Assembly: GCA_038043045.1 (NCBI GenBank)
Contig: JBBTCX010000101.1
Location: 373-64,372 of the forward strand
DNA length: 64,000 nucleotides
Direction of reading: 5' to 3'
From: Planctomycetota bacterium
GTDB taxonomy: Bacteria > Planctomycetota > Phycisphaerae > UBA1845
The notes under the pieces were generated by a model. It searched no databases and was not told where the DNA came from. It was given only the letters and a program-made list of their open reading frames with translations. This document shows positions 9,183 to 64,000 of this stretch, in pieces (the first letter of the stretch is position 1; each line of letters starts with the position of its first letter). A program made the translations under genes and the position numbers.

Positions 9183-9989
9183 GTGAACCGCGCGATTGTT
9201 TTGCGATTGCGACAAGAAGCCCCCGTTACCCCGCAACCCACTTGGTTTGTAAGAAACCGGATGTTGCACACCAGAGCGGCGCGGGAACGGGCAGCCCAGC
9301 TCGCTGAAACCGCGCGGCAACATCGGACCGATGACGGTTCTTTTGACGAACACATTTGGTTCGTCGGTTTGCACACATGCGCCTATTACGCATCGGTTGG
9401 CTCGAATGAGCGACAAAATCATTACGGAAATCGCGGACTGTGGTTGGCTCGATGGTCGGACATTCGCCGATTCCTTGCGGAGAGGAACCGGGGGCTTGTC
9501 TTCTTGGTGGTGAGTCGTTTTCGCTCGGTCTGGATCGAGTCGGAAGACCTACGTGGCGAGGGAATGTTGGCGTTGGTTCGGTCGGTGGATCGATTTGATC
9601 CCTGGCGCAAGATTCGGTTTAGCACATATGCCTATAACGCCATCATTCGATCGTTGATTCGCGTTCAGCGCATCGCCCGACACCGCATGGGACAATACCC
9701 GATTCAAGACGAAGCGTCGATTGAACTGCCGACGAGACCGCCGCCGGAACTTTGGACGGATCGTTATGTGGAAAAGCTTCGGCACGTTCTTGATCGGAAT
9801 CTCGGGGAATTGACCGAGCGGGAGTCGGCCATTCTGGACAAACGATTTCCACGTGATTCGGATCGACGATTGACGCTGGAAGAAATCGGCACGCGATGTC
9901 GTCTGAGCAAAGAGCGCGTTCGTCAAATCCAGAACCGGGCTTTGGCGAAGTTGCGCGGCGTGCTTCAAATGGACCCCTCACTCCAATAG
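9183..9989 (+). CDS. sigma-70 family RNA polymerase sigma factor (group-3-like)
   Basis: Region 2 is GEGMLALVRSVDRFDPWRKIRFSTYAYNAIIRSLIR. The region 4 HTH is LTLEEIGTRCRLSKERVRQIQNRALAKLR. The ORF has a GTG start and the true start is uncertain. Confidence 0.75.
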   Translation: MNRAIVLRLRQEAPVTPQPTWFVRNRMLHTRAARERAAQLAETARQHRTDDGSFDEHIWFVGLHTCAYYASVGSNERQNHYGNRGLWLARWSDIRRFLAERNRGLVFLVVSRFRSVWIESEDLRGEGMLALVRSVDRFDPWRKIRFSTYAYNAIIRSLIRVQRIARHRMGQYPIQDEASIELPTRPPPELWTDRYVEKLRHVLDRNLGELTERESAILDKRFPRDSDRRLTLEEIGTRCRLSKERVRQIQNRALAKLRGVLQMDPSLQ

Positions 9990-15837: not shown

Positions 15838-16845
15838 TCATTTCCATAGCCAGCGACCAGCCCAACACCCATATACCTGCATCGCGGTTAGGTACAGGAG
15901 CGCCACGATAATCTGCGATGAAACAACCGTGGCAATAGGTCGGTGGAACCTCAAGTACAATTTGTACGACAATGCAAGTCGATAGAGAACGATTATGACC
16001 ACGATGAAAAGTGCCCATCGTATTACAGGCTGCACACTGCCCCCGGCAAATATCCAAAACGGCCAGAACGCCACAGCAATCGCCCAAGGAACGAAAACCC
16101 AAACGACGGCATCGAAGCTGTAAATCGTGGACCGCAGAATGTGTTGGCCGCCGATTCTTGCCTTCCTCATCGACCACCTAAAGACTTGCAGCGCCAACAT
16201 GGTCAATATTGGCCAAATTGCAACGCCGACATGAAGCTCTAAAATCATCATCCAATCGCGTGATTTCCAAAAACCACCCATTCTTTGAAACACTGATTTC
16301 AGCGTCGAGTCAGGAAAGAGTGCGTTTGCGAATGCGGTGTGCGATCCGTATTGGGCGATTCCTGAAAGATACCAAGGAGGTGCATCACTTCGCCCCTGAA
16401 ACTTGGCCATGTTGGCAAGGAAGGTGCTTCGCTGTTCCACTATTTGGTATGCTGTAATGATGGTCAGTCGAGCCACGGCTACCATGCTCACTGAACCGAT
16501 TACTCCGATCGTCAACAAGTAATAAATGGTAAGCCTTCGACGGTTCACCGGCTGTACCGGATGCAAGCCAGACCAAAATTTCCTTGACCGAAGGCCGCCC
16601 ACAAGCGTTCGCCAGAATGGTCGAATCAATCGAGGTTGATATTCAAACAGGTAGGCGTGTTCTCGGAATCTCGGGTCAAGCAGTTCTGCCCACTCAAACC
16701 GATACCCGCACTCCGAGCAACGGGGTTCACTCTGCCCGCGGAGATCATACCCGCACAACGGGCACGGCAGCGGAGCATCGCCAACGGGTGCCTCCATCCG
16801 TTCGCTCAAAACCTGCTCTCGGGCGTCGGAAACATTTTCCATCAT
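15838..16845 (-). CDS. zinc-ribbon polytopic membrane protein, paralog B (unknown function)
   Basis: 335 aa. It has an N-terminal CPLCGYDLRGQSEPRCSECGYRFEW. Shared motifs with paralog A include RKFWSGL, VFRWSM.KA and YRLA..Y.LYLRF.RP.ATV.SSQ.IV. Confidence 0.6.
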   Translation of the reverse strand: MMENVSDAREQVLSERMEAPVGDAPLPCPLCGYDLRGQSEPRCSECGYRFEWAELLDPRFREHAYLFEYQPRLIRPFWRTLVGGLRSRKFWSGLHPVQPVNRRRLTIYYLLTIGVIGSVSMVAVARLTIITAYQIVEQRSTFLANMAKFQGRSDAPPWYLSGIAQYGSHTAFANALFPDSTLKSVFQRMGGFWKSRDWMMILELHVGVAIWPILTMLALQVFRWSMRKARIGGQHILRSTIYSFDAVVWVFVPWAIAVAFWPFWIFAGGSVQPVIRWALFIVVIIVLYRLALSYKLYLRFHRPIATVVSSQIIVALLYLTAMQVYGCWAGRWLWK

Positions 16846-40877: not shown

Positions 40878-41052
40878 GCCTCGTCCAAGGGCGAGTGAAG
40901 AGGCAACCGGGTCGATCGATGAGTTCGAGATCGGCCTCTTCATAACGGGTTACGAAACGACCTCATGGATGGGGTCGGAGCATGGCGCGTTGGAGCTGCG
41001 CGTGAAGAACATAAGAGTCGGACAAATCGACCGATCTTGGCCGTTGAAGGTC

Positions 41053-41823
41053 ATGGTGCTAGCCATCGCCTTCGTTGCGCCGACGTATGGTCAAACCGCG
41101 CCGATTCTGAACAACCCTCTGGGCATTCCCGACGTCAGTCGAATTCTCCCCCCGGCCGGCGATCCTCAAACGGTCAGCACGTCGCTCCAAATCCTCGTGC
41201 TTTTGACTGTTCTCACGCTCATTCCATCCATTCTCGTCATGGTGACGTCTTTCCCGCGCATCATCATCGTGCTCGGTTTGCTTCGTCAGGCGATCGGCGT
41301 GCCCCAACTTCCCCCTGGTCAGATTCTGTTGGCGCTATCTCTATTTCTGACCGTTCTGGTTATGGCGCCGACTTGGCAAGCGATCCATGTCGAGGCTGTT
41401 CAACCCTACTTCGACAACCGCCTCGGACAGGAGCAGGCCATGACCATCGCTTCTCACCACTTGAAAAATTTCATGCACCGTCAAATAGATCAAGCGGGGA
41501 ATCAAGAAGACATTTATTTGTTTCTGGAATATTCCCAAAGGCAACCGATTCCGCAGGGGACGACGCTGAGCCTAGAAGACGTTCCGCTATCGGCCATGAT
41601 CCCCGCGTTTCTCTTGAGCGAACTCAAAACGGCTTTCATCATGGGTTTTCGGATTTACTTACCGTTCTTGGTCATCGATATGGTCATCGCCACGATCCTC
41701 GTGTCGATGGGCATGATGATGTTGCCGCCGGTATTGATTTCGTTGCCGTTCAAACTGTTGCTGTTTGTGCTGGCCGATGGCTGGCGACTCGTAGTGGAGA
41801 CCTTGATGCACAGCTTTGTCTAG
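41053..41823 (+). CDS. fliP: flagellar type III export pore protein FliP
   Basis: ORF 40969..41823, with the probable start at 41053 (MVLAIAFVAP signal). Motifs are FPRIIIVLGLLRQAIG and FLLSELKTAFIMGFRIYLPFLVIDMVIATILVSMGMMMLPP. Confidence 0.92.
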   Translation: MVLAIAFVAPTYGQTAPILNNPLGIPDVSRILPPAGDPQTVSTSLQILVLLTVLTLIPSILVMVTSFPRIIIVLGLLRQAIGVPQLPPGQILLALSLFLTVLVMAPTWQAIHVEAVQPYFDNRLGQEQAMTIASHHLKNFMHRQIDQAGNQEDIYLFLEYSQRQPIPQGTTLSLEDVPLSAMIPAFLLSELKTAFIMGFRIYLPFLVIDMVIATILVSMGMMMLPPVLISLPFKLLLFVLADGWRLVVETLMHSFV

Positions 41824-52343: not shown

Positions 52344-53818
52344 CCCTTCTCGATTCGGCCATTCTTGGTGCATATTTCGTGGGCATTCTTTTTGTCGGCC
52401 TTTGGTTTGGCCGAAAAGAACGCGACACCACCGACTTTTTCTTGGGCGGTCGCCGTCAACATTGGCTGCTAGCCGGTATCTCCATCATCGCCACGGAAGT
52501 CAGCGCACTGACCTATATCCAAGTTCCCGCGGAAGCTTTCCACGGCAACTGGAGCTATCTCCAGATGTACTTCGGCTCCTTCGTAGGCCGCATTCTCATT
52601 CTGTTTCTTCTGCTTCCCGCATTTTATGGCGGCGCGGTCACCACCGTGTACGAATACCTCGGTCAACGATTCGGCCCGTGCACGCGCACGACCGCAGCCT
52701 TGATGTTCTTTGGCTCCCGAATTCTCGGATCAAGCATTCGACTTCTCGCCGGTTCGATGGCCGTCGCCATCGTTTTCGATTGGCCTTTATGGATTGTCAT
52801 CGTCGGCTCCGCGGCCATAGCAATTACATACGCTGCCGCAGGCGGAATCCGCGCGATCCTCTGGACTGACGTTTTCCAGACCGGCATCTTTCTCGGCGGA
52901 GCTATTGCCGTCATCGCGTTCGTTTTTTTCACGACTTCCGGCCAGGCGACCGACTCGCTCGCCGCCGCGTACGACGCGGGAAAATTCAAAATATTCCTTT
53001 GGGATTGGAACCCCAACAACGACAAAGTTTTCTGGGTGCTTTTCATTTACACCATCATTCACAACATGGCCGCTCTCGGCTGCGATCAAGACCTTACTCA
53101 GCGAATGCTGACTTGCCGCAACCTACGGGAAGGCCAAAAGTCATTGCTGTTTAACGCCATTGTCGGTTTTCCCATTGTTTGCTTGTTCCTATTCGTCGGA
53201 ATTGCTCTCTACATTTACTATCAAGCCCAACCTCCTGGCGCTCTTCCCGAAGAGATTCGAAATGTGAAGGACCGTATCTTTCCTTTTTTCATGACTCATT
53301 CTTTGCCTTCAGGGTTACGAGGGTTGCTGGTTACGGCCGTATTCGCCACAAGCATGTCCAGCCTTGCATCCGCGGTGGGGGCACTGTCGTCGTGCGCCGT
53401 AACCGACTTCTATAGGCCTATTCGGCGATGGTTGGCATCGCGAGCATCAGGAGTTTTACCATCGGAGGCCCATTTCCTTCGCGCGGCGAAGATCGCATCG
53501 CTTCTGTTTGGTGTCATCCTCATTCTGGTTGCCTTTGCTTTCGCAGGCCGCGACAAACTCCTTTGGGAGGCTTTCAAATGGCCTGCCCTCTTCTTCGGTG
53601 GAATGCTCGGCGTTTTCCTGCTGGGCGTTACGACGAAAACTCGCGGTCATGATCGTATCAATGTAATTGCGATGGTCACTTCCTCCATCGGCCTCGTCGT
53701 CCTGAAAGTCTGGCAAGAGCAGACGAAAACCGTCTATATCGCCTGGCCCTGGTGGGTCGTGATCGGCACGGCGTGGACCTATCTCTGTTCGCTTACCGCG
53801 AGAACCCGACCCTCGTGA
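52340..53818 (+). CDS. sodium:solute symporter family (SSF) transporter
   Basis: 492 aa with ~13 hydrophobic helices. The N-terminus is TDFFLGGRR...LLAGISIIATEVSALTYIQVP. It has a 4-nt overlap with dapF. Confidence 0.8.
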   Translation: MTLLDSAILGAYFVGILFVGLWFGRKERDTTDFFLGGRRQHWLLAGISIIATEVSALTYIQVPAEAFHGNWSYLQMYFGSFVGRILILFLLLPAFYGGAVTTVYEYLGQRFGPCTRTTAALMFFGSRILGSSIRLLAGSMAVAIVFDWPLWIVIVGSAAIAITYAAAGGIRAILWTDVFQTGIFLGGAIAVIAFVFFTTSGQATDSLAAAYDAGKFKIFLWDWNPNNDKVFWVLFIYTIIHNMAALGCDQDLTQRMLTCRNLREGQKSLLFNAIVGFPIVCLFLFVGIALYIYYQAQPPGALPEEIRNVKDRIFPFFMTHSLPSGLRGLLVTAVFATSMSSLASAVGALSSCAVTDFYRPIRRWLASRASGVLPSEAHFLRAAKIASLLFGVILILVAFAFAGRDKLLWEAFKWPALFFGGMLGVFLLGVTTKTRGHDRINVIAMVTSSIGLVVLKVWQEQTKTVYIAWPWWVVIGTAWTYLCSLTARTRPS

Positions 53819-53947
53819 GACTTAACCAATTACCAATACCTCATGGCCCAAAGAAGTTAAGTAATAGTTTGGGGCGTGTTCAAAGAAAGGAACCTACGCG
53901 TCTTAAAAGCCCACGATTGTCTCGGTTTATTCGAGAATTCAATCTGT

Positions 53948-56320
53948 TCACGCTCGATTCGACCCAACGGCCAACGGATACCGGTTGAATCGCAGCTTGG
54001 CGGCCACGAGCAGTGACAATCCCAACACGATTAGCCCCCAGGTTGATGTCGTGGGAATTTGAACGCACGGGCCGGCGCAGTCGGAATCTTCGCAATCGGT
54101 GAGGCCGTCACAGTCGTTGTCGATTCCGTCGGAGCACCATACGGTGTATTCCTGAGTCGGCATAAGTCCGCAGTCTTCGACGCAGAGGCATCGCTCAAAG
54201 CTCGTGCAAAGTCCGTCGCCGCAACATTCGTCGGGGATGCCGTCGGAGTCTGCATCTTGAGAGGTGCCGTCGGCGATGTCGCAGGCGTCGGGGAGGTTGT
54301 TGGTGTTGCAATCGCCGGTTGTGCCGTTGATGAGTTCGCACGCGTCCTGGAACCCATTGGGTTGACAGTCGATTAACAGCTCTCCCTCTGGGACGGCGAT
54401 ACCGTACGGGAACGGTTGATCGGGGACCAACTCCTCGATGTTGGTTCCGTCGAGGTTGGCGCGATGAATCCCCGCGCCGGTCCAGTAGATTTTTCCGGAG
54501 GCGATGTCGACGGTGACGTCCCATACGGGTTTTGATAACGGACCGACGATGGTTTGAATATTGGTACCGTCGATATTCGAACGACGAATGGTCACCGGGT
54601 CGGTGGCCGCTCCTTCGGACCAGTAGAGTTTGCCAATACCCGGGTGGACGGCGATTCCTGTGGGTTCATGGACGTCTTGGGAAGGAACGATGGTTTCAAC
54701 GGAAGAGCCGTCTAAATTGGCGCGGGCGATTCGATCGATGTTTGAACCTTGGGGTATACTTTCCGTCCAATACATTTTTCCGGCGACTCGGTCGATGGCC
54801 AAATCGTTCACATGTCCCAGGCCTGATAAAATGGTTTGAAGTCCGGAGCCGTCCAGGTTTCCGCGCCGAATTTCTCCAGTCCGATGTGTCCAGTAGATTT
54901 TCCCTTCATCCGTATTCAACGCTAGTCCGAAGGATGAACCTAGGCCGGAGAAGATCTGTTGCTTGGCGGAGCCGTCGAAGTTGGATCGGAATATGCCATG
55001 GTCTGCAAGCCCGTTGCCGGTTTTGGATATCCAATAAACCAATCGGGTGCGAAGGTCCGCGACAATAGCCGACGGACCGAAAAAGTCGGTTGAATCGATG
55101 ATCGCGGGAGGCAAAGCATTCAGATGCAAACGCAAAACGTCTCTGAGTGCATTGTCGGTCCAGAAAATGAAGGCCGGCGGAGCATCGGCCAAAGTTGAGT
55201 CGCAGCAGATGGTCGAGGAACAAGTCGAGCCCGGTCCACGTGGCATGCCGCCTTGGAGTTGGCAGCATTGGGGATCGAGCATGGTGCAGTCGGTTTGAGA
55301 CAGACAACAGGCTTCGGGAAGATGGCAAATAGTCCCCGGCGAATTTGGTGTTCCGCCGGTCGAGCCGCAGCATATCGGGTCGACGTTGCTCGAGCAGATA
55401 CCCACCTCGGAGCAGCAAGATGTTGCGACGCCGCACTGGCTACCCGCGGGTTGGGGGACGCCGTTCATCGCCATGCAGCAGAGCGGGTCAATAAATTCGC
55501 AAGTGCCGCTTGCAAGGCAACATGCCACTTTCGCGGAACAGGAACCGGACGATCGCGGCGTTCCACCGACCGCTCGGCAGGCATCGGCTGTCACCATGGA
55601 GCAACTGTCGTTGGTGAGACAACAGGGGCCGACGCAAGGGTCAGAGTCTTCGCACGACTTTCCAGCGTGAAAGTCCCCGCCGAATGTTTGAGCGCAGCAC
55701 GCTTCAGAAATCGTGTCGCTGGTACAGATGTTGCCGACGCAGCAAGTCCCCGGCTGATTGTTCGTTGTAAGGATCGCGCCGATGTTGGCGACGATGGGGA
55801 TTAGAAGTCCGTTGCCGGGGCCATCATCCCTGAACCGGGTACTGTCGTCGACCACGGGTGGGCTGCTGATGTCAATTGCCGCGGTAAGGAATTGACCTTC
55901 AACGCAAGGCGAGGCTTCATAGGTTATCGTCATGAAATAATGTGGAATATTAGCGGGAAGAAAACAAGGCGGCTCTGAAACTCCGCGGGTGCGGCCGGCG
56001 AAGCAATTCGCTAGGCTTGTCGCGGCCAGTCCGCTGGCGCAAAGGGCCGGAATTCCGGTTGAGCTTGTGGGATCCACGGTGATAAGGGTTCCCGTCAATG
56101 TGCCGGTTCCGTTGTCCAGCAGGCAGGAAACGGCGATCTGACCCGCAACGCTTAACTGGTCCACGTTGCTGGAAACGAAGAACTCAATTTGTATCTCCTC
56201 GCCGCCAACGATGGTGTTCCCGCCGATAGGTACGGCCGTAATGGTCAAAGCGCCGCGAGCCGCCGTGCAAGCCAGGGATAGAACGGAAACTATAACAAGT
56301 CGAACCAGCGGATGCGTCAT
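53948..56320 (-). CDS. large exoprotein with five modules (details in evidence)
   Basis: 790 aa with a GAGGAG RBS and signal peptide LVRLVIVSVLSLACTAARG. The modules in order are: an unnamed N-terminal domain; five ~35-aa CC..C..CC..GG.P..GS.C repeats; a YWTD (LDL-receptor class B) beta-propeller with blades LVYWIS, KIYWTH, KMYWTE, KLYWSE and KIYWTG; a TSP3-like stretch (DSDGIPDEC); and an IPTL-CTERM-like tail, IPTTSTWGLIVLGLSLLVAAKLRFNR. Confidence 0.8.
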   Translation of the reverse strand: MTHPLVRLVIVSVLSLACTAARGALTITAVPIGGNTIVGGEEIQIEFFVSSNVDQLSVAGQIAVSCLLDNGTGTLTGTLITVDPTSSTGIPALCASGLAATSLANCFAGRTRGVSEPPCFLPANIPHYFMTITYEASPCVEGQFLTAAIDISSPPVVDDSTRFRDDGPGNGLLIPIVANIGAILTTNNQPGTCCVGNICTSDTISEACCAQTFGGDFHAGKSCEDSDPCVGPCCLTNDSCSMVTADACRAVGGTPRSSGSCSAKVACCLASGTCEFIDPLCCMAMNGVPQPAGSQCGVATSCCSEVGICSSNVDPICCGSTGGTPNSPGTICHLPEACCLSQTDCTMLDPQCCQLQGGMPRGPGSTCSSTICCDSTLADAPPAFIFWTDNALRDVLRLHLNALPPAIIDSTDFFGPSAIVADLRTRLVYWISKTGNGLADHGIFRSNFDGSAKQQIFSGLGSSFGLALNTDEGKIYWTHRTGEIRRGNLDGSGLQTILSGLGHVNDLAIDRVAGKMYWTESIPQGSNIDRIARANLDGSSVETIVPSQDVHEPTGIAVHPGIGKLYWSEGAATDPVTIRRSNIDGTNIQTIVGPLSKPVWDVTVDIASGKIYWTGAGIHRANLDGTNIEELVPDQPFPYGIAVPEGELLIDCQPNGFQDACELINGTTGDCNTNNLPDACDIADGTSQDADSDGIPDECCGDGLCTSFERCLCVEDCGLMPTQEYTVWCSDGIDNDCDGLTDCEDSDCAGPCVQIPTTSTWGLIVLGLSLLVAAKLRFNRYPLAVGSNRA

Positions 56321-56450
56321 TTTCTTTCTCCTCTAACGGCGCGCACCTGCCCAGGAATGGAGACCCGGCTAGGAATGGTGCTCATTGTACCCAGATTCGA
56401 CGCTCCGTTCAAGTGCGTAGCGGCTTACTTTTTCATAGGGGGTGTGGCCA

Positions 56451-56653
56451 CACTCTTCACCGGATGCGTCGGGCCTTGCATCGAATTGCACTTTCTCGAA
56501 TGAATTGCCGAAAAGCAAGCGCGCGAAAAACCCTGGAAAAACAGGCGTTTCTAGCACTCCATCGCATCGTGTTGCATCGCAAAAGAATCGGAGGAGGAGG
56601 GATTCGAACCCCCGGTACGGTTACCCGCACAACGGTTTTCAAAACCGTCCCCT
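56451..56653. repeat. left direct repeat of integrative element (attR-side), containing the 3' 65 nt of tRNA-Ser as a displaced gene fragment (56589..56653, minus strand)
   Basis: 56554..56653 is identical to 63768..63867 (100/100, hand alignment, offset 7214). 56461..56553 aligns to 63675..63767 with 13 mismatches and no indels. Confidence 0.85.
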
Positions 56654-56717
56654 GAATTCCGTAAGCGACGAAAAGACAACGAGTTATGAAAAGCCGGATT
56701 GCGCGCTGCCGCCTGGG

Positions 56718-56858
56718 ATGCCGTCGGAAGTAGAAATTGACCCCCAAAACGACCCCGATTTGGAGCTTGTGAAATCCAGATGGGCGGCGCTGCCGGAAGC
56801 CGTTCGGGCGCGGATCGTCGGGTTGGTCGAGGGAGCGACGGCGGGAAGCGGGCAATGA
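56718..56858 (+). CDS. 46-aa ORF at element left end, which may instead be the displaced 3' end of the integrase reading frame
   Basis: The ATG at 56718 is in frame with track ORF 56442..56858. The peptide MPSEVEIDPQNDPDLELVKSRWAALPEAVRARIVGLVEGATAGSGQ looks helical. The stop is immediately followed by a terminator hairpin. Confidence 0.3.
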   Translation: MPSEVEIDPQNDPDLELVKSRWAALPEAVRARIVGLVEGATAGSGQ

Positions 56859-56890
56859 AGGGTCGGGCGTCGAGTATGGGACCCTTTTTT
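56858..56890 (+). terminator. rho-independent terminator candidate
   Basis: 7-bp stem AAGGGTC / GACCCTT with a 15-nt loop. The stem runs straight into a T-tract of six (56885..56890), whose first two T's form the stem end. It starts at the last base of the stop codon at 56856..56858. Confidence 0.4.
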
Positions 56891-57237
56891 CCCATAAATT
56901 CGAACCCAAAACCGGCAAAAACGCGACGGTTCTCGTTAGGTTAACCCCCACCCGACGAAGGGGGTGTCACGATCGCGCGGATCGCAAGGCGAATTCGCAG
57001 CGGTTATCTGTGAGGATGATTTCCCGTTATGATCGCGCGCGCGGAGTAACAAGTTTCACGCGCCTACGCGCGAGGGTCGGGACCACTTGTCATAGAGCCG
57101 TCCGCCGGAGACAATCCCGGCGTGCAGCTTGTTCGCTCTTGCAGTTGATTCAAAAGAGCTTTTCCCGCCCGTTCGGCGTGCCATTCCATTGCGAACGGCT
57201 GTACAGCGCGGAACGCGGCGGGTTTGCGCGTGACGGT

Positions 57238-58509
57238 ATGACTACAACATCGTGGAACCAACATTCCTTTCGGCTACTCATTTCCATTGCGACATGCTCA
57301 CCCGTGCTTGGTGAACAAGCGAGACTCGAACCGATTGGAGTCTTGCCCGGTGGATACACTGCCAGTTTCGCCTTCGACATTTCGGCAAACGGTGAAGTCG
57401 TCGTTGGTTACTGTGACGCTACGGGCAATGTTGGTCAAGCATTTCGATGGACACTGAAGGATGGAATTGAAGCGTTGCCTTGGTTGACACCTGGAGTCGA
57501 TCAACGATCAGATGCCTACGCCGTTTCGGCGGATGGATCGGTCATCGTTGGTCGCGTTTCACAAACTGGTGGAACGAATTCCACCGCCGTCCGGTGGGAG
57601 AATGGTATCCCGATGTCTCTTGGTGCGCTCTGTACCGACAATCCGTACGGTTCTGGTAGTTACGCATGGGATGTTTCTTCCGACGGTCAGATCGTCGTTG
57701 GTTACAGCAATAGTTGCGGTTTCCGTTGGACGGCAAAGACCGGAATTCAACCCATTCCAACACCAGCGGGATTTCCGGGCACAAGTTGCGATGCACGTGC
57801 AATATCCGGTGACGGGACCACGATAGTTGGGTCTTGCGGCGCTTGTGGCGCATATCGATGGACTGAGGGTGCTGATCCACAATCGCAACATTTTCCAGGC
57901 GCGGTGTATACGGTCGTAACAGCCGTTTCCTATGATGGCCAAGTGCTCTTCGGAAATTACAACCTTCCGTTCGGAACGCGGTCATTTCGTTGGACGCCTT
58001 CCGAGGGGTTTCAAGACTTGGGTCAATTGCCCGATCAATCCGGGTCGACGAATGTGGAGGATTGTTCGTCCGATGGGTCGATGGTTGTTGGCACTTATTA
58101 CGCACTGGACGGCGACAATGCGTTTGTATGGAGTGAATCCACCGGACTTCAAAGTCTGCGAGATATTCTCACTGATGGTGGAGCGGAACTTTGTGATTGG
58201 AGGCTTTGGAATGCTTCGTCTGTTTCCGCGAATGGCACTCGAATCGTTGGATACGCTGATGACCCCGGCCCAATGCTGTACGACGGATATGTAGCCTTCT
58301 TGTCCGATGCACCGATGGAATGTTGCAACGGGTGTGACGATGGAAACTCCTGCACGGCGGATACATGCGTGAGCGGTTTTTGTGAACACACACCCGTGGT
58401 TCACGGGGACCTTGCTCCATGCGGCGGAGACGGCAAAGTCGACATCGATGATTTGATTTCGTTGCTCGAAGCATTCAAAGGTAATTCGCTTTGCGCCTGT
58501 ACGCCGTGA
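57238..58509 (+). CDS. HAF-family-like extracellular repeat protein with Cys-rich and dockerin/EF-hand-like C-terminus (element cargo)
   Basis: ORF 57010..58509, with an ATG at 57238. It contains ~40-aa repeats of the form A.A(V/I)S.DG..(V/I)VG.......AFRW....G...L. The C-terminus is CCNGCDDGNSCTADTCVSGFCEHT...GDGKVDIDDLISLLEAFKGNSLCACTP. Confidence 0.65.
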   Translation: MTTTSWNQHSFRLLISIATCSPVLGEQARLEPIGVLPGGYTASFAFDISANGEVVVGYCDATGNVGQAFRWTLKDGIEALPWLTPGVDQRSDAYAVSADGSVIVGRVSQTGGTNSTAVRWENGIPMSLGALCTDNPYGSGSYAWDVSSDGQIVVGYSNSCGFRWTAKTGIQPIPTPAGFPGTSCDARAISGDGTTIVGSCGACGAYRWTEGADPQSQHFPGAVYTVVTAVSYDGQVLFGNYNLPFGTRSFRWTPSEGFQDLGQLPDQSGSTNVEDCSSDGSMVVGTYYALDGDNAFVWSESTGLQSLRDILTDGGAELCDWRLWNASSVSANGTRIVGYADDPGPMLYDGYVAFLSDAPMECCNGCDDGNSCTADTCVSGFCEHTPVVHGDLAPCGGDGKVDIDDLISLLEAFKGNSLCACTP

Positions 58510-58514
58510 AAACG

Positions 58515-59408
58515 ATGCGCCTTTCGAATCAAAGATTCCCAACGATTTCGTTGTCAGAAATCCTCGACGTTGGGATGAAACAAGAGGTAAACCGAATTGA
58601 ACGAGTACACAGGCGATTTGCTCGCGTGGCGTTACGCAGGAACGACCTTACGCCAGATCAACGAAGTGTACTCGAAGTCGTAATGACGGGTGGAATCCCA
58701 GTAGATGGCCGGCTTTTCGAGAATAAGCACTACGAAAGAGTCCCTGAGCGGTTTTATTTGTTGAATCGTGCTGGAAAGACCGTCCGGCGATATGAGTCTC
58801 GCCGACTCGGTGTACCGTTGCATAAACCGCGCGCCTACGACGTAATCTTGAGAGAATTCTTCGGGGCGGCAAGAAAAATCGAACAACGCCCGTTTGGTGC
58901 TGCGCCGTCTTTCACGGTTGAAACTTTTTGGCCACAATCGATAGCGATGTATCTGGAGTTCCTGAGTACAGGTGTAAAGAATCAAGAAAAATACAATGCT
59001 TATGACATTGCGGACGTGGTAAAAAGATTGCAATGCGACGGCTTCGCGGCTGAACTCTTGAGGACACTTTGGCAAGAATGCCCGGAAGAAGCGAAGGAAA
59101 TGGGGTTGCCGAAGCCGCGTGGCGTGACTGCGGAAGAAAAACCGGCGTGGGCACGATTGGTCATTCATTCATCAAAGGGGGCTGACGACACCGCAGAACT
59201 TGATGGAAAGACATTCCGTCTCACCGGCGCAAACGATGCGCGGTTTCTCGAAACGCTTCAAGAACAAAAAGGCATGACGCTATCCGCAACTTCGCTTGGC
59301 GACGCAATAGATGAACGTCCCGATCGCGTCTACAAGAGGCTTAAGAAATCACTCCAGCGCATTATTGAGAAACCCGGAAAGGGTCGCAAGGGATATCGGA
59401 TGCTCTGA
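58515..59408 (+). CDS. hypothetical protein (~297 aa), no recognisable domain (element-borne)
   Basis: ORF 58491..59408, with an uncertain start (ATG at 58515 or 58575). The stretch looks AT-richer. The C-terminus is basic (KRLKKSLQRIIEKPGKGRKGYRML). Confidence 0.5.
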   Translation: MRLSNQRFPTISLSEILDVGMKQEVNRIERVHRRFARVALRRNDLTPDQRSVLEVVMTGGIPVDGRLFENKHYERVPERFYLLNRAGKTVRRYESRRLGVPLHKPRAYDVILREFFGAARKIEQRPFGAAPSFTVETFWPQSIAMYLEFLSTGVKNQEKYNAYDIADVVKRLQCDGFAAELLRTLWQECPEEAKEMGLPKPRGVTAEEKPAWARLVIHSSKGADDTAELDGKTFRLTGANDARFLETLQEQKGMTLSATSLGDAIDERPDRVYKRLKKSLQRIIEKPGKGRKGYRML

Positions 59409-59471
59409 CATTCGATGTACATACGCTGTACGTAGACTCATCTCGCATCGCGCCCCTATTGTTGGGGCATC

Positions 59472-59651
59472 ATGAAGAAGATAAAAACTCCGAGTTTGCC
59501 GGAACCCAAGGAAATTCGCCAAGAGATTGACTCGCTCAGGTCGCGCATAGGCGAGCTGAAAGCACTCCTGCGCGTTGCTGAAGTTCAGCAGATTTCGAAA
59601 CAACTTCGCTGCAAGTCTGAAGAGAGAATCCTTGCGGAGGGACGAACATGA
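59472..59651 (+). CDS. 59-aa coiled-coil ORF, translationally coupled to the Xis-like gene (not in the ORF track, below its size cut-off)
   Basis: Hand translation gives MKKIKTPSLPEPKEIRQEIDSLRSRIGELKALLRVAEVQQISKQLRCKSEERILAEGRT. Its TGA overlaps the next ATG (ATGA at 59648..59651). Confidence 0.4.
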   Translation: MKKIKTPSLPEPKEIRQEIDSLRSRIGELKALLRVAEVQQISKQLRCKSEERILAEGRT

Positions 59652-59962
59652 CCGCGATGCCAAAACTTGCGGGGAGTGAACCCGATCGGCGGGAAAACGT
59701 GGACGCGGGGAAGCGGTCGGGGATGGAACCGGCGAGCCGGGTGGAACCGCTGGCCGTGGATGCGAAGGCGTTGGCGGGGTTGATCGGCATATCCGTCCGC
59801 ACGATTCGAACGCACGACGCCGGTGGCAAGTTGCCGCGTGGCGTCCGAATCGGCGGAAGAAAAGTGTGGATCGTGGATGAAATCAAACGTTGGCTTGAGT
59901 CCGGCGCGCCGAATCGGGCGACGTGGGAAGCGATGAAGGGGAGCGCGAGTAAATTCAAATAG
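59648..59962 (+). CDS. excisionase/AlpA-type helix-turn-helix DNA-binding protein (HTH_17-like)
   Basis: LAVDAKALAGLIGISVRTIRTHDAGGKLPRGVRIGGRKVWIVDEIKRWLESG. Confidence 0.7.
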   Translation: MTAMPKLAGSEPDRRENVDAGKRSGMEPASRVEPLAVDAKALAGLIGISVRTIRTHDAGGKLPRGVRIGGRKVWIVDEIKRWLESGAPNRATWEAMKGSASKFK

Positions 59963-60020
59963 GCACAAAAAAGTACCCGCGATCGGCGGCAACCGAGAGC
60001 GCGGGCGAAAGCGATTAACC

Positions 60021-61556
60021 ATGAATCAGTATAGTCAAAAGCCGTCATCGTCACAAGTCGACGACCGACTCCCACCACATGATCCTGACGCGGAAAGGGC
60101 CGTCACCGTTTGTCTTGCCGACGTGGCACCTGAGCGGTTGACTTGGCTGTGGCCGAATAGAATACCGCTGGGCAAACTCACATTGATCGCCGGTGATCCG
60201 GGCCTTGGAAAAAGCTTCGTCACGTTGGATATGGCGGCGCGTCTTTCACGGGGCGAGCCGTGGCCGGACAGCCCGAATGAACCCGGAACCTGTGGATCAA
60301 CGATCATTCTGAGCGCCGAAGATGATCCGGCGGATACGATCGTTCCGCGTCTTATGGCGCATGGGGCCGACCTTTCACGAATTCACGCTCTTTCCACCGT
60401 AAAACAAAAGGATGGGAAGCTTTCGCCATTCAACTTGTCGCGCGATGTGCCTGTTTTGGAAAAGGCGATTCAGCAAGTCGGCGAATGCAAGTTGATCGTC
60501 ATCGACCCGGTGAGCGCCTATCTCGGTGGAGTCGATTCGCACAAAAACGCGGAGACACGCGGACTACTTGGACCATTGGCGGAATTGGCGGGGCGCCACC
60601 GCGTGGCCGTTGTCATGGTTACGCACGTGACCAAAGCCTACGGCGGAAAAGCGCTCTATCGTGCCACCGGTTCGTTGGCATTCATGGCGGCGGCGCGGGC
60701 CGGTTGGACGGTCATGGCGGACAATGGTGACCCGAAAAGGCGACTCATGCTGCCGGTCAAGGTGAATTTGGCTGAGTGGCCGACGGGTCTGGCATACAGA
60801 CTCGTTCCGCAATTCTTGGACGAAATCGGTGCGAACGTGGCGACTGTTGTTTGGGAGCCGGACCCGGTTGTTGTTCAAGCCGACGAAATGTTGCGGCGGG
60901 AAACGAACGCCAACGAAGGGCAGAAGCGCTCAACGCACACCGCGCGTGATGAATGTGCGGACTGGCTGGCCGCAAAGCTTGCTATTGGACCGGTTCCGGC
61001 GACGGTGATGGAAACCGAAGCGGATCAACGGGGATACTCTACTTCCACACTACAGCGGGCAAAGCGAAGGCTTGGTGTCGAAAGCAAAAAGATCGGCATG
61101 AAAGGAAAAGGCAGTTGGCATTGGCGTTTACCAAGCCACGAATCCGAAGGTGTTCACCATGCGGATGAAGATACTCACCCAAAAGATGTGAGTACCTTCG
61201 GGGCGGGTGAATACCTTCGCGTTATTGACCCCGAAAACGCGGGTTCCGAACCCCTGATAAGTGACCATCCCACCGAAGATACTCACCCACCGGGGGTGAA
61301 CACCTTCGGCGATGACCGTGGCAATTCTGAACCGCGCGATCGCTTGGGCAAAACCAAAACCGTTAATGGAAACGGACAACTTCCCCTTCCACTTCATCCG
61401 CGTGGGGAGGAATTCACCGGCTTGGTTCCGGTCGACATGACGCCGGAAGGGTATCTACTCGTACTCAAAGGCCGCGCAAAGCGAACCGACGATCCGCAAA
61501 CCGTTCGAAAGCTGCGCGACAGTGCCGCGAAGATTCGAAAGCTGATTCAGAAATAG
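60021..61556 (+). CDS. AAA_25 / RepA-like RecA-fold ATPase (replication-initiation type protein of integrative elements)
   Basis: LWPNRIPLGKLTLIAGDPGLGKSFVTLDMAARLSRGEPWP is the Walker A. LIVIDPVSAYLGG is the Walker B. The C-terminal third carries a repeated EDTHP..V.TFG peptide. Confidence 0.7.
   Translation: MNQYSQKPSSSQVDDRLPPHDPDAERAVTVCLADVAPERLTWLWPNRIPLGKLTLIAGDPGLGKSFVTLDMAARLSRGEPWPDSPNEPGTCGSTIILSAEDDPADTIVPRLMAHGADLSRIHALSTVKQKDGKLSPFNLSRDVPVLEKAIQQVGECKLIVIDPVSAYLGGVDSHKNAETRGLLGPLAELAGRHRVAVVMVTHVTKAYGGKALYRATGSLAFMAAARAGWTVMADNGDPKRRLMLPVKVNLAEWPTGLAYRLVPQFLDEIGANVATVVWEPDPVVVQADEMLRRETNANEGQKRSTHTARDECADWLAAKLAIGPVPATVMETEADQRGYSTSTLQRAKRRLGVESKKIGMKGKGSWHWRLPSHESEGVHHADEDTHPKDVSTFGAGEYLRVIDPENAGSEPLISDHPTEDTHPPGVNTFGDDRGNSEPRDRLGKTKTVNGNGQLPLPLHPRGEEFTGLVPVDMTPEGYLLVLKGRAKRTDDPQTVRKLRDSAAKIRKLIQK
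61144..61309. repeat. iteron-like cluster: four copies of GGTGA(A/G)(C/T)ACCTTCG(G)
   Basis: There are three direct copies: 61188..61201 (gtgagtaccttcgg), 61206..61219 (ggtgaataccttcg) and 61295..61309 (ggtgaacaccttcgg). One inverted copy lies at 61144..61158; ccgaaggtgttcacc is the exact reverse complement of the 61295 copy. In addition, a 35-bp direct repeat unit gaagatactcaccca...accttcgg occurs at 61167 and 61275. Confidence 0.6.
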
Positions 61557-61600
61557 TAAAAAATGCGCCCTTGACGGTGCGCCTAACATGAGGTATATTT

Positions 61601-61909
61601 ATGGATGGAATGGACACCAAGGCGAGAAGGGCATGGAATGCTATACGGGAATGCGTCGCACGCAAACGATACATCGTGCTGCCGCACTTCATCGAACGCA
61701 TGGACCAGCGCGGATATTTTTGGCCGGACGTGCTGGCGATCATCGATGAACCGACCGACGTGCGATCCGATGGGCTGGACCGACTCGACCGTCCGAAGTG
61801 GATCGTTTCCGGTAAGGCCGCCGCGCCGCTGGACGAAACGGTGGAAATCGTTTGTGTGCTCGACAAAGATGACCGTGGCCGCGTGACCGTGTTCATCACG
61901 ATTTATTGA
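61601..61909 (+). CDS. DUF4258-family toxin-like protein
   Basis: 102 aa. YIVLPHFIERMDQRGYFWPDVLAIID...RVTVFITIY fits the H..eRm..Rgi ... viTvY pattern I recall for DUF4258. Confidence 0.6.
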   Translation: MDGMDTKARRAWNAIRECVARKRYIVLPHFIERMDQRGYFWPDVLAIIDEPTDVRSDGLDRLDRPKWIVSGKAAAPLDETVEIVCVLDKDDRGRVTVFITIY

Positions 61910-61918
61910 GGAGTCATC

Positions 61919-62344
61919 ATGGCGACGAAGACCCGCAAGACCTGGCGACGTGGACGACCGAGAGCGGCGCAGCTCGATAACCCCGATCTTCCCTACACGA
62001 TGAAACTGCCCGATGGTCGCGTGCTGTATACCGAAGTTCCGGGCCGATGGGTGACGGCGGACCGCGATGGACAGGCGGCGTTGCTGCCCGATGGGGTGGC
62101 GTTTCTCGATAAGCTGCGAGCGTTGGCGATCAAGCTGGACCGTCCACCGACACCCGGCTACATCACGGCGCTTCGTGAAGGATTGGGACTGACCCAAGCC
62201 GAATTCGGTGAGCGGGTCGACGTGGATAAGATGACCATATCCCGATGGGAGCGTGGCACGCTTCGACCGAGTGAAGAATCCTTGGCGGCGGTGGAAAGCG
62301 TGCGACGTGAAGCCGTCCGAAGTGGCGTAACCATTCAGGCATAA
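61919..62344 (+). CDS. XRE-family HTH protein (putative cognate antitoxin)
   Basis: ITALREGLGLTQAEFGERVDVDKMTISRWERGTLRPSEESL. It starts 10 nt after the DUF4258 gene. Confidence 0.65.
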   Translation: MATKTRKTWRRGRPRAAQLDNPDLPYTMKLPDGRVLYTEVPGRWVTADRDGQAALLPDGVAFLDKLRALAIKLDRPPTPGYITALREGLGLTQAEFGERVDVDKMTISRWERGTLRPSEESLAAVESVRREAVRSGVTIQA

Positions 62345-62365
62345 GAGCGCGGGAGCAAGTGCAAC

Positions 62366-64000
62366 ATGGCGCGGATATATCGAAAGAGTTGGACAAAGCG
62401 GCTACCCGATGGATCGAAGGAAAAGACTCGTTCGCGGGCGTGGTACGTCGATTACCGGGACGTGGCGAGCGATACCGTGAAGACCGTGAAAGGCTACACC
62501 GACCGCAAAGCCACTGAACAACGCGCGGCGGAGTTGGAGCGAACATCCGAGCGGACAGCGGTGGGGCTGATTGATCGATTCGCCGAACATCGCAAGCGAC
62601 CGCTGACCGAACACGTTCACGACTTTCACCGTGCGCTACTCGCCAAGGAATGCACGGAAAAACAAGCCGACTTGTTGATGTCGCGGTGTCTGAGGGTGTT
62701 GGACGAATGCCGGTTTCGGTTTTGGCCGGAGATTTCGGCGTCAAGTGTTCAAGCGTCAATCGCGGAATTGAAAATCCGGCGTAAGGGAAAGACTTCCAAT
62801 GATCCGACGTTGCCGGTGAGCGTCCAAACGAAAAACTTCTACTTGGCGGCATTGAAACAATTCTGTCGGTGGATAGTCCGTGACGGTCGAGCGCCGGAGA
62901 ATCCCCTTGCCCACTTGCAAGGTGGAAACGTTCGCACCGATCGTCGCCATGATCGCCGTGCTTTGGAACCAGACGAATTGCGTCGGCTGTTGTCGGTTAC
63001 TGAAACCGGAACTACTCGCTACAGCTTGACCGGGCCGGATCGGGTGGCGCTTTATCGGCTTGCGGTCGAAACCGGACTCCGAGCATCCGAGCTGCGCTCG
63101 TTGACTTGGAACGACCTGAACTTTGCGGGTGCCGAACCGACGGTCACCGTCCGGGCCGCATATGCCAAGAATCGCCGTGAGGACTCTCTACCCTTAAAAC
63201 TCTCGACGGCGCAATCCCTTCGCGTCTGGCGCGATAAACAGGTCGGCGTGGACCGAATGGACCCGGTGTTCCCCACGATGCCCGCAAAGGGGCATGTTGC
63301 CGAAATGGTGAGGGCTGACTTGGATGATTCGGGAATCGTCTATCGTGATGACGCGGGCCGCGTGGTCGACTTCCACGCTCTTCGACACACCTTTATCAAC
63401 AACCTTGTCCGTGGCGGCGTTCAGCCGAAGGTGGCGCAAACGCTTGCCCGACATTCGACCATCACCCTGACGATGGACCGATACTCGCATACCAACCGTG
63501 GACAGCTCACCGACGCGCTATCGGCACTACCGGATTTGTCACTCGAACCCTGTGAAAAAGAAGTCGCGCTAGCCACCGGGACTGACAATCGCATCATCGA
63601 ATCCCGCGCTCAAAAAAGTATGCCGGAAAACCTGCCGTCCGCGCTGCCGTTTCACATGCCGGAACAGGGTTCACCGAATGCGTCGAGTATTGCATCGACT
63701 TGCACTTTGTCGAATGAATTACCGAAAAGCAAACGTGCGGAAAATCCTGGAAAAATAGGCGTTTCTCGCACTCCATCGCATCGTGTTGCATCGCAAAAGA
63801 ATCGGAGGAGGAGGGATTCGAACCCCCGGTACGGTTACCCGCACAACGGTTTTCAAAACCGTCCCCTTCAGCCGCTCGGGCACTCCTCCGTGAGTCAAAC
63901 CTGTCCGGTCGTAATGATCCACGAACCCCCGACCCGCGCGCGTCTGTTACCGCGACGGGGTCGGCGTGTTGCCATGTCGTGTCACCAAGGTCGCTCTTTT
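62366..64000 (+). CDS. tyrosine recombinase/integrase; reading frame open to the window edge (no stop in window)
   Basis: This is hand-translated and absent from the ORF track because it has no stop. It starts MARIYRKSWTKRLPDGSKEKTRSRAWYVDYRD. Box I is LAVETGLRASELRSLTWNDL. Box II is FHALRHTFINNLVRGG...LARHSTITLTMDRYSH, with the catalytic Tyr near 63485. The frame then continues through the repeat, antisense through the tRNA, and to position 64000. Confidence 0.8.
   Translation, partial: MARIYRKSWTKRLPDGSKEKTRSRAWYVDYRDVASDTVKTVKGYTDRKATEQRAAELERTSERTAVGLIDRFAEHRKRPLTEHVHDFHRALLAKECTEKQADLLMSRCLRVLDECRFRFWPEISASSVQASIAELKIRRKGKTSNDPTLPVSVQTKNFYLAALKQFCRWIVRDGRAPENPLAHLQGGNVRTDRRHDRRALEPDELRRLLSVTETGTTRYSLTGPDRVALYRLAVETGLRASELRSLTWNDLNFAGAEPTVTVRAAYAKNRREDSLPLKLSTAQSLRVWRDKQVGVDRMDPVFPTMPAKGHVAEMVRADLDDSGIVYRDDAGRVVDFHALRHTFINNLVRGGVQPKVAQTLARHSTITLTMDRYSHTNRGQLTDALSALPDLSLEPCEKEVALATGTDNRIIESRAQKSMPENLPSALPFHMPEQGSPNASSIASTCTLSNELPKSKRAENPGKIGVSRTPSHRVASQKNRRRRDSNPRYGYPHNGFQNRPLQPLGHSSVSQTCPVVMIHEPPTRARLLPRRGRRVAMSCHQGRSF
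63665..63867. repeat. right direct repeat of integrative element (attL-side), overlapping the integrase 3' region and nt 23-87 of tRNA-Ser
   Basis: See the left repeat. Identity ends at 63867 (R1 continues g, R2 continues t). Confidence 0.85.
63803..63889 (-). tRNA. tRNA-Ser (anticodon UGA), class II with long variable arm
   Basis: The reverse complement is GGAGGAGTGCCCGAGCGGCTGAAGGGGACGGTTTTGAAAACCGTTGTGCGGGTAACCGTACCGGGGGTTCGAATCCCTCCTCCTCCG. The 7-bp acceptor stem is GGAGGAG/CTCCTCC. The anticodon stem is ACGGT/ACCGT with loop TTTGAAA (TGA). It has a GTTCGAATC T-loop. CCA is not encoded. Confidence 0.9.

Follow-up and report, generated by a model that had tools for sequence, protein, structure and literature searches.

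A 7.2-kb tRNA-Ser-targeting element of a Planctomycetota bacterium with an integrase gene that appears to span its own attachment site

Integrases whose genes are disrupted by their own integration have been described for the SSV-type recombinases (SSV1/2, pTN3, and pT26-2; PMC8371274, PMC7253208), which a 2021 review places "exclusively in the archaeal domain" (PMC8371274). Here, we analyze a 64,000-nt stretch of a Planctomycetota bacterium genome (assembly GCA_038043045.1, contig JBBTCX010000101.1, positions 373 to 64,372; hereafter, the window), in which a tyrosine integrase gene reads into a tRNA-Ser(UGA) gene. The explanation that we favor, and hold with considerable confidence, is that window positions 56654-63867 constitute a 7,214-bp mobile element that resides in the 3′ part of tRNA-Ser(UGA) and belongs to a large family of tRNA-targeting elements in Planctomycetota, in which the element's own attachment site (attP) lies inside the integrase open reading frame (ORF). 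As in the SSV-type systems, attP would be a tRNA segment within the integrase (int) ORF, and integration would place the gene parts at opposite ends of the element. In the SSV-type enzymes (PF16795), the catalytic Int(C) is cut off from Int(N), with loss of activity, whereas in the present family, the PF00589 domain (the only match) is left intact, a tail of approximately 45 to 70 aa with a conserved helix is removed, and the hosts are bacterial.

Integration also changes gene products in other described systems. In the mycobacteriophages BPs and Brujita, attP lies in the repressor gene, and integration removes a C-terminal degradation tag (PMC3694055). These phages share with the present element an attP within coding sequence and C termini that differ between the viral and prophage forms, and there, the C terminus controls the fate of the protein; the split gene, however, is that of the repressor rather than the integrase. 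In phage lambda, the cis element sib lies across attP from int, so that the int message ends differently, and Int output differs, between the free and integrated states. The effect of sib is on the RNA, via RNase III processing, whereas in the element described here, the coding sequence itself changes.

For the island as a whole, the closest described concept, by analogy, would be the cargo-carrying tycheposon of Prochlorococcus; 419 of 501 tycheposons lack packaging genes (Hackl et al., bioRxiv 10.1101/2020.12.28.424599). Both kinds of element are small and combine a tRNA-targeting tyrosine recombinase with a primase/helicase module of 2 to 4 kb, an excisionase, and environment-related cargo. 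Tycheposons, which are defined by an integrase lineage of their own and by an inward-facing integrase, differ in host phylum and in helicase family (AAA_25 in the present element), and int here faces outward and crosses the att site. A preliminary description of the window, made from the sequence alone, had likened the island to phage satellites or cryptic integrative elements, a comparison that proved apt. Phage-inducible chromosomal islands (PICIs) and P4-like satellites resemble it in carrying an integrase gene beside a tRNA or att site, an AlpA/Xis-like helix-turn-helix (HTH) protein, and a primase-helicase. The domain order of P4 alpha (primase, helicase, and C-terminal DNA-binding domain) resembles that of this family, in which the C-terminal part is assigned from a sequence pattern. 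The satellites differ from the present element, which has no terS, capsid-size, or interference genes and whose helicase is a RecA-fold AAA_25 protein and not a member of SF3.

The integrase gene and the reconstructed attachment site

The features that bear on the integrase and its attachment sites are listed below in window coordinates.

56456..56653 (no strand): left attachment site (attL), a 198-nt direct repeat, perfect over 56554-56653 and unchanged in the empty-site contig L088
56456-56587: within attL, native host sequence downstream of the tRNA, as seen in L088
56588-56653: within attL, displaced 3′ 66 nt of tRNA-Ser(UGA)
56654..56858 (+): apparent detached 3′ end of the integrase gene, including a 46-aa ORF (56718-56858), in frame with int across the reconstructed attP
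About 56748-56840 (+): conserved C-terminal motif NDPDLELVKSRWAALPEAVRARIVGLVE, with the stop codon at 56856-56858
62366..64000 (+): tyrosine integrase gene (PF00589, E 2e-23; phrog_1, E 3e-41), with an element-encoded part at 62366-63867 (500 codons)
63670..63867 (no strand): right attachment site (attR), the element-borne copy of the repeat
63802..63890 (-): intact tRNA-Ser(UGA) targeted for integration; host DNA supplies its 5′ 23 nt, and the repeat contains its 3′ 66 nt

The integrase ORF begins with the ATG at 62366, encodes the motifs GLRASE, HALRHT, ARHS, and DRYSH, and has no stop codon within the window. The preliminary description had recognized a tyrosine integrase here but described it as abutting the tRNA; the ORF in fact reads antisense through the tRNA and crosses the att site. 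In the integrated state, it stops at the equivalent of 64058-64060 (the right flank being taken from L088), which yields a protein of 564 aa with an unrelated, host-encoded tail. For every delimited element, we rebuilt attP by joining the left part of attR to the right part of attL. In the circle reconstructed in this way from the window, int joins 56654-56858 to encode 568 aa, with the junction at codon 500 of 568. In this circular-form protein, a linker, part of which is the antisense translation of the tRNA segment, connects the catalytic domain to a conserved C-terminal amphipathic peptide; upon integration, the last 68 int codons come to lie at the opposite end of the element. The 46-aa ORF, previously listed as a gene in its own right, does exist and has its own ATG, but it appears to be the detached 3′ end of int. 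The window contains only one copy of the motif, in this ORF, and only one integrase of this type, at 62366.

The related loci show the same relationship between integrase and tRNA. Of 35 loci, 34 (among which one element is represented twice) have an int ORF that ends 28 to 136 nt past the tRNA 3′ end, either within the antisense tRNA or beyond it. The T-arm is translated as G[FL]EP in most of these ORFs and, from a different frame, as DSNP in the window and two others. Across the rebuilt attP, int continues in frame for 45 to 70 codons to the motif DP[DE]L.AV[VI].AWP.LP.A[IV][RK]AGI[VT]AMVR in 10 of 10 elements, which together occupy nine tRNA species. One of the ten, which has a Prim-Pol helicase, was found independently through the motif. 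For the frame alone, the chance of an in-frame continuation in all ten is approximately 1.7e-5. Nucleotide differences within the motif amount to 0.40, 0.33, and 0.54 at the first, second, and third codon positions, and because third positions vary most, the motif appears to be under selection at the protein level.

A natural counterpart of the reconstructed protein is encoded on contig L134 (IMG/VR, 43,208 nt). There, a single ORF of 573 aa runs from the integrase domain through the 3′ half of a tRNA-Arg(TCT), read antisense, to the C-terminal motif, and it aligns end to end with the 568-aa window protein (34% identity, E 5e-77). A second IMG/VR contig, L131 (49.6 kb), carries the same integrase type and motif in split form, whereas L134 is unsplit; both contigs may be phages or prophages. 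Because it is present on these contigs of 43 to 50 kb, the arrangement is not confined to small islands.

The motif occurs in 2182 database proteins, the best 120 of which are all "hypothetical proteins" of 32 to 86 aa, several of them named from Planctomycetota. Judged by sequence, these short orphans are detached integrase ends of integrated elements. A hidden Markov model of the motif yielded no further loci after iteration. Together, these comparisons place attP inside int and indicate that integration would exchange the C terminus of the integrase. An indirect sign of the free form comes from a relative, L002, for which Logan contig L003 spans exactly from repeat to repeat with a terminal overlap of 26 nt, compared with the k-1 = 30 that we assume for Logan. 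Since an overlap shorter than k-1 is expected only if k-mers of the attP junction co-occur with the integrated form, L003 may reflect a circle of L002.

Target tRNA, repeats, and the empty-site allele

ARAGORN placed an intact minus-strand tRNA-Ser(tga) at 63802-63890, and Rfam scored 63803-63889, the interval given in the preliminary description, as a tRNA with 54.6 bits against a gathering score of 29. A repeat search over 54 to 64 kb returned a single long direct repeat, 56456-56653 = 63670-63867, of 198 nt and 93% identity, and confirmed the 7214-nt spacing noted before. Base-by-base comparison showed that the copies are identical at 100 of 100 positions over 56554-56653 = 63768-63867, that identity stops abruptly at 56653/63867, and that the 13 mismatches between attR and attL all fall within the outer 98 nt of the repeat (63670-63767). 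The repeat contains the 3′ 66 nt of the tRNA-Ser (56588-56653 in the attL copy) and 132 nt past its 3′ end. When the attL copy was scored alone, Rfam reported only tRNA-Sec (26 bits, E 0.09), as expected for a fragment; we assign the segment as a piece of tRNA because it matches the intact tRNA-Ser gene at 100%.

Similarity over the 132 nt beyond the tRNA at attL might be taken for the scar of an earlier element. The empty-site allele, however, has this sequence too, and we therefore rejected the interpretation. Apparently, the element carries its own diverged, host-like copy of the tRNA 3′ flank. The relative L129 likewise has a diverged copy of host tRNA-downstream sequence next to the att core (9917-9980 versus 16328-16391), which includes a terminator-like hairpin, CCCCTGTTTTGCAGGGG. 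These flank copies (in the window, 56456-56587 versus 63670-63801) presumably keep the rebuilt tRNA gene terminated or processed. In the window, TTGCATCG motifs near the att sites were not enriched over chance.

Well H41 of the Hainich groundwater site is the source of environmental contigs that match the window. Metagenome contigs were scanned with a 33-mer from the perfect repeat, and two were recovered, L087 and L088. The former, from a sister sample, contains the filled attL junction. The reverse complement of the latter equals window 55578-56653 joined to 63868-64000, with no mismatches over 1209 nt; it lacks exactly 7214 bp, runs 738 nt further, and bears an intact tRNA-Ser(tga). L088 is an empty-site allele, the population of the aquifer is polymorphic for the element, and a misjoin across the repeat is improbable. 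The search for an empty site that the preliminary description had proposed was thus answered, by a contig with a coverage of 2. The locus has a tyrosine recombinase with its catalytic domain, end repeats that duplicate the 3′ part of a tRNA, and an empty-site allele, as do tRNA-targeting islands. A Logan contig, L001, was also considered as evidence of the empty site and dropped, since it ends 30 nt into the perfect repeat, at a k-mer break.

The left neighborhood of the element is core genome, with a flagellar export operon, DapF, and a solute symporter. L087 matches the window from 53904 rightward, and its first 85 nt (L087:1-85) are unrelated to the corresponding window sequence (53818-53903), which suggests a structural variant or an assembly break just downstream of a gene for a 790-aa protein with low-density lipoprotein (LDL)-receptor repeats. 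Within the flagellar export operon, ARAGORN also called a 95-nt tRNA-Ser(gga) at 40959-41053 (+), between fliO and fliQ/fliR and overlapping a 395-aa ORF; this call is probably a false positive.

Gene content, replication module, and relatives in Planctomycetota

Between the attachment sites, the element carries the following further genes.

57010..58509 (+): HAF-repeat secreted protein, cargo (TIGR02913, E 4e-17), with internal repeat D2 and a Cys-rich, dockerin-like C terminus
58515..59408 (+): 297-aa protein with an N-domain of unknown function and a C-domain of about 95 aa
59472..59651 (+): 59-aa ORF with no detectable relatives
59648..59962 (+): HTH_17 protein, MerR/AlpA/Xis-like (PF12728, E 2.8e-4; phrog_66 "excisionase," E 1.5e-9), at the same place in relatives
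60021..61556 (+): AAA_25 (RepA-like, RecA-fold) replicative helicase (PF13481, E 5e-37; phrog_239 primase/helicase)
61601..61909 (+): DUF4258 protein, putative type II toxin (PF14076, E 1e-4; 23 bits, cut-off 25)
61919..62344 (+): XRE/HTH_3 protein, MqsA-like, putative antitoxin or element regulator (PF01381, E 1.8e-10; TIGR03830, E 2e-10)

All element genes are co-directional and all eight ORFs are intact, and profile searches bear out the families assigned to them in the preliminary description. Exact-protein look-ups of the AAA_25, 297-aa, DUF4258, and HTH_17 proteins returned no record, and PADLOC reported no defense system in the window. The HAF-repeat gene likely starts at the ATG near 57238 (MTTTSW...). 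The C terminus of its product (window 58400-58509) contains the Cys-rich, dockerin-like segment CGGDGKVDIDDLISLLEAF, and the host flank beyond the tRNA, as seen in L088, encodes a very similar segment, CGPPDGVIDLDDLLSVLSTL, on the opposite strand. The 790-aa neighbor mentioned above (53948-56320, minus strand), too, is a secreted repeat protein rich in Cys. The cargo resembles surface proteins of the host.

A 90%-cluster search with the 297-aa protein returned only the protein itself, and its single-sequence AlphaFold model reached a predicted local distance difference test (pLDDT) score of 41. It has 113 relatives, most of which match the C-domain; the N-domain is common to the relative L027. 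AlphaFold2 run on the alignment modeled the C-domain with a pLDDT of 89. Foldseek matched this model to the DNA-binding domains of AfsR, GlnR, ArlR, and PhoB at probabilities up to 0.96 but with nonsignificant E values (0.04 or higher), and a profile search of the PDB found only CpxR (E 0.07). The C-domain is probably an OmpR/PhoB-like winged helix that binds DNA, as its predicted fold suggests.

The HTH_17 protein is a candidate excisionase or recombination directionality factor. The gene upstream of it keeps its position and is nonhomologous between elements. The DUF4258 and XRE genes form a putative toxin–antitoxin pair, which is retained in L013, L027, and L052 at 58 to 79% identity. A sigma-70-like promoter sequence (TTGACG-17-TATATT, 10/12), the best match in the element, lies at 61571-61599 (+) and ends 2 nt before the DUF4258 start codon, a position that would imply a leaderless transcript for the toxin–antitoxin–integrase block.

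The gene described previously as a Rep-like ATPase does belong to AAA_25; what had been missed is that the window carries a helicase-only form, whereas most relatives have an N-terminal zinc finger and Toprim primase domain, and L129 a Prim-Pol domain. Its conserved C-proximal region has the sequence pattern of a winged helix. Two 46-nt direct repeats occupy the 3′ part of the gene (61156-61201 and 61264-61309); each holds the inverted repeat GAAGATACTCAC-N9-GTGAGTACCTTC and encodes the repeated peptide EDTHP..V.TFG. Relatives have the peptide motif EDAH..VS.F..EHLR, and in the four loci where it is clearest, the palindrome is conserved in the DNA as well, Ser being encoded by AGY in every case. 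A broader DNA scan, which was poorly framed, found the palindrome in 5 of 82 tails. The repeats are a possible replication origin inside the rep gene. On IMG/VR contigs, homologous primase-helicases lie near major-head/protease genes in four of seven cases and near large-terminase genes in two of seven, and because of this proximity, we regard the replication module as one that is also common to phages.

The AAA_25 protein has more than 3400 relatives at approximately 50% identity. In GTDB species genomes, we confirmed 476 AAA_25 loci, nearly all in genomes labeled Planctomycetota, including Phycisphaerae, Pirellulales, Planctomycetaceae, Schlesneria, and Singulisphaera. At 36 loci, representing approximately 20 tRNA species, the AAA_25 gene is followed, 1.3 to 3.2 kb downstream, by a minus-strand tRNA, and an integrase gene lies between the two. 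With relatives at so many different targets, the island does not consist of ancestral core genes, which would have counted against the preliminary interpretation. Elements for which both ends were found measure 6.0 to 11.4 kb; the search for attL with 16-nt seeds failed in about 25 loci.

Gene content was compared across 70 ORFs of eight delimited relatives, for which the 25 most-matched of 37 Pfam families and of 62 PHROG families were considered. An integrase and AAA_25 occur in all eight, and Toprim, HTH_17, and HTH_3 occur in many. The cargo is heterogeneous and includes a methylase with Vsr and DUF4928, RCC1 repeats, FTR1, PIN, and insertion sequence transposases. No capsid, terminase, portal, relaxase, or type IV secretion system (T4SS) family is among those 25 per library, which extends to relatives the absence of capsid, terminase, relaxase, and T4SS genes already noted for the window. 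On the basis of these sequence assignments, the core of the family comprises HTH_17, an AAA_25 helicase that in most members is joined to a primase (Toprim or Prim-Pol), XRE, and a tyrosine integrase transcribed toward the tRNA. The remainder is variable cargo, which in the window consists of the HAF-repeat protein and the 297-aa protein with its probable winged helix. At L127:11800-13400, the truncated C-terminal half of an integrase lies beside a tRNA-SeC(tca), with no helicase, and a motif-bearing small ORF and a DUF433/DUF5615 pair lie approximately 3 kb upstream. This locus suggests that remnants of the family persist in genomes and that the selenocysteine tRNA may be a target. We found no literature description of these Planctomycetota elements, although our coverage of the literature was incomplete and an earlier account is possible.

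Alternative explanations, a proposed working, and significance

That the element is a phage satellite, excised and replicated upon infection by a helper and packaged in helper capsids in the manner of PICIs or P4, we consider unlikely. Its size, its tRNA-integrase layout, the Xis-like HTH protein, the phage-type helicase, and the XRE regulator are all as in satellites, related primase-helicases adjoin phage head, protease, and terminase genes, and the integrase with its C-terminal motif recurs on the 43-kb contig L134. However, neither terS, cpm, the major capsid protein gene, nor ppi, nor any capsid-remodeling, head, or interference gene, was found by Pfam, PHROG, and PADLOC in the window or among the most-matched Pfam and PHROG families of the eight relatives; the cargo is host-adaptive or defense-like (restriction-modification, FTR1, and secreted repeats); and no helper phage is known. 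A conjugative or mobilizable class of element (integrative and conjugative, integrative and mobilizable, or actinomycete integrative and conjugative element) has no counterpart here either, as no relaxase, T4SS, or FtsK family matched the window at E ≤0.01. We think it very unlikely that a prophage or island has decayed here into an immobile remnant and merely kept its att repeats. The lack of structural genes, the helicase without a primase domain, and the presence of a clear remnant (L127) in the family would fit such decay, but the eight ORFs are intact, the repeat is perfect over 100 nt, an allele lacking exactly the element exists in the same population, and relatives of equal size and gene order, with intact integrases, occupy approximately 20 tRNAs.

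Two further alternatives concern individual parts of the argument. L088 could be a chimeric assembly over the 100-nt repeat from a population that is uniformly filled; a perfect repeat at least as long as the usual k-mer and a coverage of only 2 make this conceivable. Assemblers, however, normally break at such repeats, a misjoin requires both element-side edges to be missing, and L088 matches exactly across the join over 1209 nt and extends a further 738 nt, so that we regard a chimera as rather improbable. Least credible of all is that the left-end peptide is an independent small gene that lies in frame with int across attP by accident. Gene callers do annotate such peptides as hypothetical proteins of 32 to 86 aa, and the window copy has its own ATG, yet the frame is open without a stop in all ten independent elements, against the low chance expectation given above, and the single ORF of L134 joins integrase and motif naturally. 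Several observations do weigh against our preferred explanation of a tRNA-targeting element with attP inside int. The motif was shown by only 15 of the loci with enough upstream sequence (relatives without it may be larger, decayed, or otherwise organized); the HTH_17 and DUF4258 matches fall under the Pfam curated cut-offs; the window helicase, like those at 11 of 77 loci, has no primase domain, which makes autonomous replication uncertain; the low coverage of L088 would in principle allow a misjoin across the perfect repeat; and the scan of metagenome contigs with the repeat 33-mer recovered no attP or circular-junction contig for the window's own element.

If the preferred explanation holds, Int would recombine attP with the host site (attB) within the 100-bp identity, which extends from the anticodon stem to beyond the tRNA 3′ end. 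Integration would restore the 3′ part of the tRNA, with the element supplying a copy of its 3′ flank, and Int together with the HTH_17 protein as directionality factor would mediate excision and reintegration. The RepA-like helicase, the C-proximal region of which is probably DNA-binding, would replicate the circle, with priming by the host in this primase-less copy, and the DUF4258 and XRE proteins would stabilize the element as an addiction or regulatory pair. Transfer from cell to cell would rely on an outside vehicle, such as a phage capsid, vesicles, or transformation. The C-terminal helix would be present only on Int made from the free form, and it may serve as a docking, oligomerization, or stability element that separates "integrate" from "stay or excise." A C terminus that depends on state in this way could tune integrase activity or stability between the free and integrated forms.

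Tentatively, and with somewhat less than even confidence, we propose that this is the first bacterial integrase family in which the gene spans its own attP and that the exchange of the helix for host sequence acts as a free/integrated switch of activity, partner binding, or stability. On this same tentative reading, the family would stand between the archaeal "suicidal" integrases and integration-dependent immunity, and it would be widespread in Planctomycetota islands and present on at least one 43-kb IMG/VR contig. The arrangement contrasts with the conclusion of the 2021 review that integrases disrupted by their own integration are restricted to archaea (PMC8371274).

What is surprising is the split-integrase architecture; the element itself is an island of an ordinary kind, found in a phylum that has received little study. 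To our knowledge, Planctomycetota have almost no characterized mobile elements or genetic tools, and the present element is compact, has defined att sites and a replication module, and encodes both an integrase and a likely excisionase, which makes it a candidate for integration vectors in the phylum. Thousands of orphan metagenomic "hypothetical proteins" of 30 to 90 aa would be explained as detached integrase ends, and the motif, combined with an integrase reading into a tRNA, would provide a simple marker for delimiting such islands. The loss, in bacteria, of a conserved C-terminal module while the catalytic domain is spared may be a new means by which recombination directionality or integrase turnover is coupled to the state of integration.

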